Source of the DNA: Candidatus Heimdallarchaeota archaeon
GTDB lineage: Archaea; Asgardarchaeota; Heimdallarchaeia; JABLTI01
Direction of reading: 5' to 3'
Assembly (NCBI GenBank): GCA_019056785.1
Contig: DXJV01000061.1
Location: forward strand, 1-56,183
DNA: 56,183 nt
Part shown: in pieces, positions 12,306 through 15,054 of the stretch
Numbering within the stretch: the first letter of the stretch is position 1
Layout: each line of letters opens with the position of its first letter
Made by a program: the position numbers and the translations under genes
The notes under the pieces: generated by a model
What the model saw: the letters and a program-made list of their open reading frames with translations, nothing else
Databases searched by the model: none
Told to the model about the DNA's origin: nothing

Positions 12306-12544
12306 TTGCAAACGCAACAGTAAAGGTTAGTGAACGACTCTTAGAAAACTTTCCATTAAAAAATTATTCGATATGATTCACTTTTGTAGTGAATAAATTA
12401 CTTTCCCGAGAAGCTAATAATAAAGCAGCAGATCTTCTGAAAAGAATAGCCGAAGAAATTATATTGCGGGTAGTTCTTACGAGTCTGGATAGAACATATG
12501 ATGGCAGAGTATTGTACCTACTATGCTTTGTCTATATAAATACG

Positions 12545-12652
12545 GTATGTAAAGAATGTAAGGTATGTAAAGAATGTAAGGTATGTAAAGAATGTAAGGT
12601 ATGTAAAGAATGTAAGGTATGTAAAGAATGTAAGGTATGTAAAGAATGTAAG
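12545..12652. repeat. Perfect tandem repeat, 6 x GTATGTAAAGAATGTAAG (two alternating 9-mers)
   Basis: Read directly; identical copies with no spacers. Confidence 0.98.
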
Positions 12653-12686
12653 GATGGTCATAAAAATACTAATGCCTTTCTCTTTT

Positions 12687-13616
12687 TCAGTTAGCAACAT
12701 CCAGAGGATAGAGAAGTGTAATAGTCTTTTTTAAGCTTTCAGGGGTAGTGCAATAATCTTTGACGAGTTGCAGAATATTCTTGGCGATTTGTATTGCTCG
12801 TGGCACAGAATCATTTTGATTGACAATCAGAGCAATAACATAGCCCTTTTGCTTCACTAAAACAATTTTGTATTTATTGTGTTCTGTCACTTCTTCAGCC
12901 GTCTTATGTATGCGCATCACCCGAGAGAAAATAGTTGCCTTTCTTCTGATGTGATGTATTGTTGTAATTAACGAAAGGTCAGGCTTAGGGGTAAGAATTA
13001 CGTCCATTAGATCGCTTGTCTCTTCACAGAGGGTTACACAGGCTGCAATATGAACATAATCGATTATTCTTTCACGTTGTTTAAAGAGCGTTTTAGTCAG
13101 CCATTCTTCTATGGTGTACATGCCTTCACCAGTTTTCGCAGAAAATTTAAAGAGGTCGCAATGACAGCGGGTCCTCTTATCAAGCTCCACAACTTCTAAA
13201 GTGTCAAGTAATTCATCAATTGAAATTGACTTGCTTGAATCTGCCTTTGAACCAAGAATCAACAGTCGGTCGGGTAAAACCTCCTCAATTAAAGCCCATA
13301 ACAGTTGCTTATTAAGAGTGAGATGAGCACGGTCTGTGGAATCAACAATAAAAAATAGAACATTCGCACCTAAAATAGCTCGCTTCCATAACGAATGGTC
13401 GCTTGGGAGGGAGTCTATAATATCCCAAGTCAATAAAGTAAGATTCTCATGTACATAGAGCTTCAAACCTAAAGATTCTTGCGTGGATATTTGAAGAAAA
13501 TCTTCAGTTTGCAAAATACGTTTAACTAACTCGGTCTTCCCAGCATTTTTTAACCCAATAATTGCAATTGAAATTTTGTTCTTAACTTTAGAGATTAAAG
13601 TTTTCAAGGAAGACAT
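12687..13616 (-). CDS. Arf/Rag-like small GTPase fused to a C-terminal ~130-aa roadblock/longin-like domain
   Basis: G1 GLKNAGKT, degenerate G3 WDIID, FIVDSTD, G4 SKAD, G5 FSAKTG; alpha/beta C-terminal module. Confidence 0.75.
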   Translation of the reverse strand: MSSLKTLISKVKNKISIAIIGLKNAGKTELVKRILQTEDFLQISTQESLGLKLYVHENLTLLTWDIIDSLPSDHSLWKRAILGANVLFFIVDSTDRAHLTLNKQLLWALIEEVLPDRLLILGSKADSSKSISIDELLDTLEVVELDKRTRCHCDLFKFSAKTGEGMYTIEEWLTKTLFKQRERIIDYVHIAACVTLCEETSDLMDVILTPKPDLSLITTIHHIRRKATIFSRVMRIHKTAEEVTEHNKYKIVLVKQKGYVIALIVNQNDSVPRAIQIAKNILQLVKDYCTTPESLKKTITLLYPLDVAN

Positions 13617-13684
13617 TTTACTACAAACACACTCTCAAGTCAATCTTTAACAACTGTTCGCCAACAGGAGGCATTTTACACAAA

Positions 13685-13752
13685 AGAAGAAAAAGGCTAG
13701 AAGAAGAGGGACAACCCTCTATCCTGTTTATTCTGATGACAAAAAAGTCATC
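13685..13752 (-). terminator. Putative terminator of the proline-rich gene: two hairpins and a U-rich tract
   Basis: GATGAC-N6-GTCATC (13735-13752) and AGAGGG-ACAA-CCCTCT (13705-13720), then CCTTTTTCTTC on the minus strand. Confidence 0.45.
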
Positions 13753-14798
13753 TAACCTTCTTCGCTCATAAATTTCTTTAGACGAGCCAATTCTCGCAAC
13801 ATTTCCATTCTTAGTCCACTGATACTTTGGGTATCACTGTCGCTAGTAGCCGGAGCTGTGCCGGGTGAAGAAACACTTGTTGCTGTTGGAACAGGCGGGG
13901 GAACTAAATCAGAGGTTGTTGGAGGAGCAACTCGAGAGGGAGATGTTGTGGGGGCTTTTGGTGGCATGGGTGGTGTTGAAACTGTAGGAGGAGCGATGCT
14001 CGGTGGGACGACTGTCGTGGGCTTAGCAGTAGGAGGACCAACAGTGGGGATCTTAGGCGGTGTGGGAATCGGTGAAGAGGGTTTTGTTGGCGGAGTGCCC
14101 ATTTTAGGCGGCGCGGCAGTAGGAACCTTCGGAATGGAAGATACTCCTGATTGAGCTGTTGGAGGGGCACTGCGTCGAACCGGCGGGGCCGTGGCCGGAA
14201 TGCCCGGTGTTGGACTTGGAGGAGGGGGTGGAGGGGTCCTTTTTGAGGTAGGAGCTTTCGGCATAACTTTACCACGAATCCGATCTCTACTTTGCTCTAG
14301 TGTCTCAGCCAATGATTGGTATTCTTGAGCACCAGAACGCCGTTTCATATCGGAATCGATCTTTGCAATTCGTTGTTTATAGCGATTTGTTAAGGTACTT
14401 GCCACACGGGAACTTATCCGTTTATTTTTACTTGCGTCTTTTACTGCTGAAAGAGCAGTGCTGGCCGCCACACGTTCTATTGAAAGAATTGCCATAACTT
14501 CTTTTGGATCAGCATTTGTTGTCCCTGTGTCCAGCGATTGATCTGAAGACGCTAACGCCGCCAAAGCTGAAACGTCGACAGCTTTTTTCTTCTTCTTAGA
14601 AGTAGCAATCCATATAATGACTAAAATTATCACAAGGCCTAGCCAAACAAATGATGCCCAAATCATGGCATTAAGTGAGACATTAGGTACGATTTCGGGT
14701 AGATCGATTTTATCTATAAATGACAACAATATTTGCCCCTTTTTTATTTTGTATATTCTTTTTCTGGTAAAGGATAATTCTCCGTTTTTTATAATCAA
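13752..14798 (-). CDS. Single-pass membrane protein: helical hairpin (steadiness-box-like), long Pro/Thr-rich linker, C-terminal amphipathic helix
   Basis: TM WASFVWLGLVIILVIIWIA followed by KKKKK; RTPPPPPPSP; terminal LRMEMLRELARLKKF; true start is probably a TTG near 14729/14726. Confidence 0.8.
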   Translation of the reverse strand: MIIKNGELSFTRKRIYKIKKGQILLSFIDKIDLPEIVPNVSLNAMIWASFVWLGLVIILVIIWIATSKKKKKAVDVSALAALASSDQSLDTGTTNADPKEVMAILSIERVAASTALSAVKDASKNKRISSRVASTLTNRYKQRIAKIDSDMKRRSGAQEYQSLAETLEQSRDRIRGKVMPKAPTSKRTPPPPPPSPTPGIPATAPPVRRSAPPTAQSGVSSIPKVPTAAPPKMGTPPTKPSSPIPTPPKIPTVGPPTAKPTTVVPPSIAPPTVSTPPMPPKAPTTSPSRVAPPTTSDLVPPPVPTATSVSSPGTAPATSDSDTQSISGLRMEMLRELARLKKFMSEEG

Positions 14799-15054
14799 TT
14801 TAACTGCTCAATTTAATGTTGTTGACAGTTAAACGTTAATATTAGCTTGTAGGTTATTGATTGAGTTAAACCTTGGTTACATCTCTAACTAAGGTTTATT
14901 TCCTATCGAAACTAACTACAAACTCTTTATTAATTATTGTGTTTATGACATAAAAAAATCATTTGCTCTGGTTTTTATATTTGAATCCTATTTTGCCCGA
15001 CGAAACCCCTTTATGGCGAGAGAAAAAGGCAGAAAAAGACTCTAATCTTATAAA

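Follow-up and report, generated by a model that had tools for sequence, protein, structure and literature searches.

A probable membrane-anchored tether with a conserved terminal helix in Asgard archaea, and Vps4 as its candidate client

How the eukaryote-like machines of Asgard archaea (ESCRT, actin and small GTPases) are linked to membranes is largely unknown; in the Asgard isolate MK-D1, for instance, the small GTPases showed no lipid-anchor signal of the terminal-cysteine type (PMC10933270). A contig of 56,183 nucleotides from Candidatus Heimdallarchaeota archaeon (GenBank assembly GCA_019056785.1, contig DXJV01000061.1, positions 1 to 56,183 of the forward strand; hereafter the window) raises this question through one gene on its reverse strand, whose product has a single transmembrane segment near its start, a helix at its very end and a long proline-rich stretch between: what would such a protein hold at the membrane? 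Sequence comparisons place it in an undescribed and unannotated family of bitopic membrane proteins widespread in Asgard archaea, and it is very likely to act as a membrane-anchored tether with a docking helix at its free end. The explanation that we favour, taken as a whole (a membrane adaptor whose docking helix has the ESCRT ATPase Vps4 as its client), has in our estimate a probability of about 40%. The family is mostly single-copy, occurs in about one-third of sampled Asgard genomes and has a 20-residue, predicted cytoplasmic helix as its sole near-invariant element, which makes it a concrete candidate for a membrane link; if the client is Vps4, it would give the Asgard ESCRT system a membrane receptor that has been missing.

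A bitopic membrane protein and its family

The open frame on the reverse strand begins at a TTG at 14798 and would give 348 residues (13752..14798), the form assumed in the first-pass annotation of the window, which had been made from the letters alone. Because the protein database product (325 residues) starts from the second TTG, at 14729, and 20 of 20 aligned homologues start at the equivalent position (MAxxDF...), the 23 extra N-terminal residues are probably not translated, and residue numbers below follow the 325-residue form. Its parts are as follows.

13752..14729, (-) strand: most likely coding sequence, 325 residues plus stop, TTG start with AAGGGG ~8 nt upstream
14598..14666, (-) strand: single transmembrane segment, residues 22-44, from the sequence and the AlphaFold2 helix 19-48
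14583..14597, (-) strand: KKKKK stop-transfer or positive-inside signal, residues 45-49, basic in all homologues
14268..14513, (-) strand: conserved alpha-helical hairpin, residues 73-154 (helices 75-101 and 107-154)
13830..14267, (-) strand: disordered Pro/Thr/Ser-rich tether, residues 155-300, AlphaFold2 block-mean confidence (pLDDT) mostly ~35-57 and no secondary structure
13755..13829, (-) strand: putative C-terminal amphipathic docking helix, residues 301-325, core LRMEMLRELARLKKFMSEE

Searches of the whole protein with Pfam and NCBIfam returned only noise of the transmembrane type. An AlphaFold2 model built with a 21-sequence alignment has a helix (19-48) that holds the transmembrane segment, a short helix (53-72), a confidently modelled hairpin (helices 75-101 and 107-154; block-mean pLDDT ~85-95 over 81-150), disorder over residues 155-301 and a C-terminal helix (303-324, pLDDT 70-88). 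The hydrophobic segment MIWASFVWLGLVIILVIIWIATS is followed directly by KKKKK and, by the positive-inside rule, the N-terminal 20-residue acidic stub would lie outside the cell, with the bulk of the protein in the cytoplasm. The linker counts 146 residues, among them 48 Pro (33%), 24 Thr, 18 Ser and a run of PPPPPP; the protein terminates in GLRMEMLRELARLKKF, its last residues being ...SISGLRMEMLRELARLKKFMSEEG. The layout that the first-pass annotation had described, namely an Asgard protein built as a membrane-tethered scaffold with one transmembrane segment and KKKKK, a helix-turn-helix, about 145 residues of Pro/Thr/Ser low complexity with PPPPPP and a terminal helix, holds in every part, with the start most likely at 14729.

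The 42 close homologues, all from Heimdall or other Asgard metagenome-assembled genomes, are likewise unannotated and without Pfam domains. In a 21-sequence alignment, mean column identity rises from 0.48 in the N-terminal stub and 0.59 in the transmembrane segment to 0.68 in the linker, 0.86 in the hairpin and 0.96 in the C-terminal helix, where 20 of the last 23 aligned columns are near-invariant and ISGLRMEMLRELARLKKFMS is identical in 20/21 sequences (the exception reads IRGLRMEML...). The helix motif occurs once in the 2.87-Mb genome. Conservation as uneven as this indicates that the described features are not products of chance. Within the linker, several blocks are kept in the clade (PPPPPPS.TPGIPxTAPPV, KPSSPIPTPPKIP, VVPPSVAPPTISTPPLPP and VAPPTTSD.APPPVP), and column identity reaches 0.83-0.90 in the blocks PGIPxxAPPV, KPSSPIPTPPKIP and VVPPSVAPPTISTPP; in this clade the linker is more than a spacer. 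A P[TS]AP motif was considered there and rejected: the clade consensus PGIPPTAPPV holds PTAP, the window's own copy reads IPATAPP, and with such a composition chance alone would give ~0.4 occurrences.

Beyond this clade, an exhaustive profile search over 1.84 billion representative proteins gave seven matches, three of them distant (E 1e-5 to 2e-4) and of the same architecture, and a profile search that included the distant matches brought in further proteins, labelled Wukong- and Hod-archaeota in their annotation. When 201 genomes of the Asgard phylum were searched in six frames, the hairpin profile matched 60 (E<=1e-6), with one match each in all but two; the matches span at least 12 family-level groups, and three well-sampled Asgard groups gave none (0/40, 0/10 and 0/7). 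The relationship between the Heimdall-clade and distant members is secure (probability 98.7%, E=4e-16). Transmembrane segment, hairpin, linker and end helix are kept in every lineage examined, and the N-terminal hydrophobic segment is present in all parseable sequences of a set of 26 diverse members. The linker of these 26 varies from 78 to 203 residues, with 12-37% Pro and up to 34% Asp plus Glu, and is acidic in one clade; PPP runs are common in the window's clade, and most other lineages have none. The end helix, by comparison, follows the consensus L[RQ]xEM[LM]x[EA][LMI]x[RQ]L[KR]xhh across the family, with L306, E309 and M310 invariant across the phylum even where hairpins are only ~20-30% identical, and one clade whose hairpin is ~25% identical carries exactly the same LRMEMLRELARLKKFMS. 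A terminal helix not kept in orthologues was among the results that the first-pass annotation had named as speaking against it; across the phylum, however, no part of the protein is better conserved than this helix. Since it stays invariant while the polyproline varies, the family-defining and presumably functional element is the end helix on its tether, and not the polyproline on which part of the first-pass annotation had leaned. No description of the family was found in the literature searched; the nearest clusters in the Protein Atlas, unnamed Thorarchaeota 'hypothetical proteins' (0.84), serve as a lead only.

The end helix and Vps4

We propose that the N-terminal transmembrane helix (N-out, C-in) anchors the protein, that the juxtamembrane hairpin, of a steadiness-box, CdvA or SHOCT type, probably forms an assembly or oligomerisation module, and that a disordered tether of ~80-200 residues, here rich in Pro, Thr and Ser, carries the C-terminal amphipathic helix into the cytoplasm as a docking motif. 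That the helix is fixed across the phylum, in a protein whose other parts have diverged to 20-30% identity, argues for a partner that is itself highly conserved. The likeliest client would be the MIT domain of Vps4, of which the genome encodes one copy with such a domain on contig 11 at ~96.9 kb, so that the protein would be a membrane-resident receptor bringing Vps4/ESCRT activity to a membrane site, as CdvA or a viral mimic of an MIT-interacting motif (MIM) does. Vps4-MIT is the best-supported client because the helix resembles ESCRT-III tails, lies at the C-terminus after a flexible linker and accompanies a hairpin of steadiness-box/CdvA flavour; as an assignment of the end helix taken by itself it is tentative.

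The likeness is to the ESCRT-III tails of the lineage itself. The tails of the genome's two ESCRT-III proteins read ...AELAKEIEELRKEREN and ...EVSEEISELRKKIERERSGA, and the class-wide endings of these two paralogues (DDLExEIQKLRKKEED and DLEAELEGLKKKMSED) compare well by eye with EMLRELARLKKFMSEE of the window's protein. These class tails end in [DE]L.xE[IL]xxL[KR]K(K)(MSED), and what they share with the end helix is the pattern acidic-h-x-x-E/A-h-x-x-L-K/R, placed at the very end after a flexible linker; the end helix itself is a three-fold h-x-x-L-[RK] amphipathic pattern. Among the 3,977 ORFs of the genome with at least 100 residues, E-h-x-x-E-h-x-x-L-[KR]-K occurs within the last 30 residues of three only, the two ESCRT-III proteins and the window's protein, the pattern having been derived post hoc. 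A non-circular comparison is given by a hidden Markov model (HMM) made from the family's C-terminal helices only and scored against the last 40 residues of each ORF: it ranks the two ESCRT-III proteins 3rd and 9th of the 3,977 C-termini and, among 131 ORF C-termini at the ESCRT-III loci of other genomes, places ESCRT-III proteins in all of the top 30 ranks. M310, L314, L317 and K318 fill the hydrophobic and basic positions of MIM1, with Glu313 where the consensus has Arg. A non-ESCRT-III protein that recruits Vps4 through a C-terminal MIM1 has a precedent in Ac93 of AcMNPV (PMC11998489). The genome's own Vps4 reads ARAKE where VPS4B reads DRAEK; the idea of a charge swap in the MIT domain, to which this gives rise, we have not used as evidence.

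Several results weigh against this proposal. The end helix does not match the canonical MIM1 consensus, which PMC11998489 quotes as (D/E)xxLxxRLxxL(K/R), and has Glu or Ala in the place of the conserved Arg; a strict regular expression for it matches 0/3,977 ORFs of the genome, ESCRT-III included. In the reverse direction, with HMMs of ESCRT-III tails from other families, the window's protein comes no higher than 15th (type B, E ~6) and 71st (type A), and E-values of ~6-33 are not significant; HMMER's register also differs from the one drawn by eye (SIxxLRxE with EIxELRKE). The best matches of the helix profile in the PDB are segments of the GCN4 leucine zipper (NEVARLKKLM, E=0.0085), so that any amphipathic Leu/Lys helix might look as similar. 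Heimdall-clade sequences alone yield no steadiness-box signal in the hairpin (hhalign 0.9%). Nor is there an ESCRT gene nearby in any of >45 loci of the family, the most widespread neighbours being rpiA- and PPDK-like. The MIM1-like tail that the first-pass annotation had proposed survives as an option through its likeness to the lineage's own ESCRT-III tails, although the canonical consensus is not matched and the GCN4 zipper matches equally well. On balance, resemblance of the end helix to local MIM1-type tails is moderately supported by the alignments, and it is not unique to them.

A stronger version of the same idea, in which the family is a dedicated Asgard transmembrane receptor, analogous to CdvA, that recruits Vps4 (or ESCRT-III/Vps4) by a MIM1-like helix on its long tether, independently of ESCRT-I/II, and is wired to an Arf-like GTPase switch in one Heimdall lineage, seems to us rather doubtful. 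If true, it would represent GTPase-controlled ESCRT recruitment in prokaryotes, among the closest archaeal relatives of eukaryotes.

The neighbouring GTPase and other candidate partners

The GTPase in question is encoded by the next gene downstream.

12687..13616, (-) strand: Arf-family GTPase gene, same strand, 135 nt away from the membrane-protein gene (Pfam Arf, 1e-17)

Its G3 motif is degenerate (WDIID, with no DxxGQ) and its G4 motif reads SKAD. The AlphaFold2 model (pLDDT 82) has a C-terminal domain (residues 185-309) with the order beta-beta-alpha-beta-beta-beta-alpha-alpha and, going by this secondary-structure order alone, the domain may be of roadblock/longin type. The model aligns to Arl8A, Arf1 and the Asgard HodArfR1 (VIA-align Z=22), the G domain having filled the list of matches; this G domain is not Rag-like. 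In the window's lineage, the membrane protein is co-encoded with this Arf-like GTPase, with its degenerate switch II and putative roadblock/longin-type domain, and may be regulated or positioned by it.

Taken further, the membrane protein could instead be foremost a tether or regulator of the GTPase, as LAMTOR1/Ego1 is for Rag/Gtr, its hairpin or end helix binding the G domain or the roadblock/longin-type domain and so holding at the membrane a GTPase that has no lipid anchor of its own, a need that the missing terminal cysteines of the MK-D1 small GTPases (PMC10933270) would fit. In 13/13 related loci of the window's lineage, two of them with different genes upstream, the very next gene downstream encodes the GTPase and is on the same strand. 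In a second clade, annotated Wukong/Hod (L029:2269-5677 (-), L023, L024, L027 and L030), a conserved operon of five genes runs divergently from the family gene beside it, an operon that encodes a canonical small GTPase with a C-terminal Cys (...KDGC), a 300-residue protein without Pfam match, two V4R proteins (of the TRAPPC3 superfamily) and a polytopic membrane protein, and that could be a GTPase plus TRAPP-like module. With ~30 small-GTPase ORFs in the genome, an immediate small-GTPase neighbour is expected by chance in ~1-2% of cases, and the two independent juxtapositions (roughly p=0.02 by our estimate) are suggestive. Against this stand ~30 loci of seven other Asgard family-level groups, which have no small GTPase within 6 kb, so that GTPase tethering cannot be the core function of the family and the link is a lineage-specific one. 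The 13 loci moreover probably represent one family-level lineage, in which synteny may simply be inherited. The end helix does not vary, whereas identity among the GTPases falls to 34%, and the P-loop Gly-Lys is missing from one GTPase orthologue (L002:7118-8044), which suggests drift towards a pseudo-GTPase. A complex prediction with two GTPase copies and residues 50-325 of the membrane protein (score 0.00, mark 0.32) speaks neither for nor against binding. We regard this alternative as unlikely.

Elsewhere the neighbourhood has a different character. A gene of ~230 codons lies directly downstream in 29/32 loci (L088-L119; eight Asgard family-level groups), in either orientation, with a PPDK gene next to it, and is ribose-5-phosphate isomerase A (rpiA) in annotated loci; this synteny is unusually deep for apparently unrelated genes. 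In the window itself, a perfect tandem array at 12389-12700, whose strands read (VCKECK)n and (LTFFTY)n, separates the GTPase gene from a korD-like ferredoxin gene. DNA near-identical to window positions 12600-15000 is present in at least nine metagenome runs from hydrothermal vents or marine sediments, from several studies (sampled-word share 0.62-0.95), and no RNA run is among those listed.

A second alternative dispenses with a separate client. The end helix would be a short coiled coil of the leucine-zipper kind, pairing with itself or packing on the hairpin, and the protein a self-assembling scaffold that forms an oligomer or brush close to the membrane. The GCN4 segments that head the PDB matches of the helix profile are in keeping with this, as are the heptad-like seam I303-M310-L314-L317-M321 with its hydrophobic flanks and the fact that steadiness-box, SHOCT and CdvA hairpins are assembly modules. 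Coiled coils tolerate substitution, however, yet Glu309-Met310 and the Leu positions are invariant phylum-wide, and invariance amid so much drift suggests a fixed partner surface; 21 residues are also short for a stable zipper, and the hydrophobic moment is only moderate (0.29). Self-assembly of this kind, without a separate client, is in our judgement quite improbable.

Actin is the third candidate. A WH2 motif consists of an amphipathic helix, a short linker, often with Gly, and an extended LKK[TV] (LLxxIxxGxxLKKV), and the first-pass annotation had seen such a motif, with profilin-binding polyproline before it, as an equal option to MIM1. The end helix would then lie in the groove of an Asgard actin, as WH2 and arcadin-2 do, while the polyproline recruits profilin-actin, making the protein an elongation or tethering factor in the manner of VASP or WASP. 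Several facts are in favour: LKKF follows the helix, PPPPPP and several clade-conserved PPxP blocks precede it, the genome has a eukaryote-like actin on contig 5 at 18.6-19.7 kb, Heimdall profilin binds polyproline, if weakly (PMC8410842), an ARF GTPase was co-immunoprecipitated with Lokiactin in L. ossiferum (PMC13716822), and the layout matches that of arcadin-2, whose conserved C-terminal helix after an unstructured linker binds the crenactin groove (PMC5173319). The spacing is not that of WH2, however: MLRELARLKKF puts LKK three residues past the last helix hydrophobic and not six, there is no Gly break, and the model runs through as one continuous helix. The Pfam WH2 model (PF02205) matches 0/26 members, and across the family most lineages have no PPP runs and one clade has an acidic linker. 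The Pfam profilin model found no match in the genome, although this search is uninformative for Asgard profilins, its control having matched nowhere. The WH2 and profilin-actin part of the first-pass annotation is not supported, and an actin adaptor is distinctly unlikely.

The hairpin and comparison with known systems

The first-pass annotation had likened the helix-turn-helix to the steadiness box of the ESCRT-I subunit Vps23/TSG101. Searches by fold with the modelled hairpin cannot tell a steadiness box from a generic hairpin. Foldseek found nothing better than E 0.7. The top matches of VIA-align are indeed C-terminal hairpins of Vps23 (2f66_A, Z=10.0, root-mean-square deviation 2.4, 65 aligned residues; 2caz_D, Z=9.3), but 116 chains reach Z>=8, and hairpins from integrases, PadR, FemA, CHMP4B, PspA and GTPase effectors are effectively tied, within 1 Z unit. 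The ESCRT-III-type hairpins of this set, CHMP4B and PspA, do not rise above background (Z 8.6-8.7), and the Pfam Snf7 model (PF03357), run genome-wide, matched only the two ESCRT-III genes, on contigs 47 and 80, at E<=0.01, the window's protein giving no match.

At the level of profiles, the Pfam Vps23_core model (PF09454) has no match on the protein at E<=1, on the hairpin at E<=10 or in any of 26 family members. The same model does pick out two ORFs of the genome's contig 52, one Vps23-like and one Vps28-like, orthologues of which occur in 19/81 genomes; in those 81 genomes it reached only frames of 192-490 residues, mostly Vps23- or Vps28-like, and none of the family's. The two genes on contig 52 adjoin each other (~9.4-10.8 kb) and encode a Vps23-like protein of 264 residues (UEV, coiled coil and steadiness box) and a Vps28-like protein of 219, and a second paralogue with UEV and steadiness box, a 228-residue ORF on contig 47, was caught by the steadiness-box profile at E=5e-4. 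Profile-profile alignment gives a weak likeness: hhalign of the family hairpin against Asgard Vps23 steadiness boxes scored 24.4 (P=5e-4, probability 31%) over 47 columns covering both helices and the turn, compared with 9.3 for the reversed alignment, 9.4+/-1.8 (maximum 14.2) for 40 column shuffles and 19.4 for the Vps23 steadiness box against Vps28-N, its accepted structural relative. The signal stems solely from distant members (probability 45%), whose turn YKNGEISSDVY compares with FKDGEISPVDF in the genome's Vps23-like protein.

The same turn, however, gives rise to sub-threshold Pfam matches to GvpG (6/26 members), SHOCT (4/26) and the CdvA coiled coil (2/26; at best E=8e-4 and 19.9 bits against a cut-off of 30, in one distant member), and it also matches the cytoplasmic hairpin of OST1; the hairpin profile against the sequences of solved structures gave nothing below E=0.02. 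The steadiness-box and CdvA hints are mutually consistent because the two hairpins have been reported as related, Makarova et al. having described HHpred similarity between them (PMC11188069). We read the hairpin as weakly steadiness-box-, CdvA- or SHOCT-like, a sequence likeness that would place it in a broad class and in no established family; of the earlier comparison, at best a weak remote likeness survives (P=5e-4), while the fold is that of a generic hairpin and Vps23_core matches no member. A zinc-ribbon protein of 266 residues on contig 72 repeats hairpin motifs of the form K/G-x-[IL]-[ST]-x-x-x-Y, so that the turn motif of the steadiness-box/SHOCT/CdvA kind is evidently common in this organism.

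That the hairpin is a genuine steadiness box, joining the Vps23- and Vps28-like proteins in a membrane-anchored ESCRT-I headpiece, draws on the leading Vps23 hairpins of VIA-align, the hhalign score and the xNG[DE]ISxxx[FY] turn that distant members share with the genome's Vps23-like protein, but is very unlikely given the crowd of unrelated hairpins within 1 Z unit, the absence of Vps23_core matches in the family, the other families that the same turn attracts, and a protein with neither UEV domain nor stalk and a gene unlinked to the ESCRT-I genes of contig 52. This alternative concerns another part of the protein and is compatible with any client of the end helix, so that our probabilities for the alternatives need not sum to one.

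Among known systems, the ESCRT-I steadiness box (Vps23/TSG101, Vps28-N and Vps37-C; PF09454) is alike in being a helical hairpin of ~60-80 residues, in the weak profile-profile likeness above controls and in the G-[DE]-I-S...[FY] turn of distant members. It differs in that the family has no Pfam match, UEV, stalk or linkage to ESCRT-I genes, a far longer second helix (48 residues) and, in the window's clade, has lost the turn Gly. LAMTOR1 and Ego1 of Ragulator and EGO are likewise membrane-anchored and largely unstructured with short helices, and the family gene can lie beside a GTPase with a putative roadblock/longin-type domain; here, however, a transmembrane helix takes the place of N-terminal lipidation, the sequences show no similarity, only two clades have a GTPase gene adjacent, and the G domain is Arf/Arl8-like rather than Rag-like. 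Arcadin-2 and WH2 proteins share a conserved C-terminal element on a long unstructured linker, whereas the family lacks the WH2 spacing and any Pfam match to it, as well as the Trp that arcadin-2 needs for binding. ZipA is similar in architecture, being bitopic with an N-terminal anchor and a P/Q-rich tether and having a cytoskeletal partner, but ends in a globular domain where the family ends in a helix.

CdvA (PF18822) is comparable in plan: a membrane-associated receptor in which a steadiness-box-like hairpin leads into an unstructured linker, and a short conserved element at the C-terminus recruits the ESCRT machinery. Bathyarchaeal CdvA-like proteins fused to Glu-rich unstructured sequence have been reported (PMC11188069), and these fusions resemble the acidic-linker clade of the family. 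Unlike CdvA, the family has no PRC barrel, is anchored by a transmembrane helix, falls below every curated threshold of similarity, ends in a MIM1-like amphipathic helix and not in a peptide that binds the ESCRT-III winged helix (wH), and is encoded outside any cdv/ESCRT locus. The remaining comparison is with the MIM1 tails of ESCRT-III (Vps2/24/46 class) and with Ac93. The window's protein lacks the ESCRT-III core, and its longer helix has further invariant positions of its own (L306, L311, F/Y320 and M/L321); like these proteins, however, it carries a Leu-rich amphipathic helix at its extreme C-terminus after a flexible, partly Pro-rich linker, and invariant positions of the family coincide with those of MIM1 that are hydrophobic (i, i+4 and i+7) and basic (i+8).

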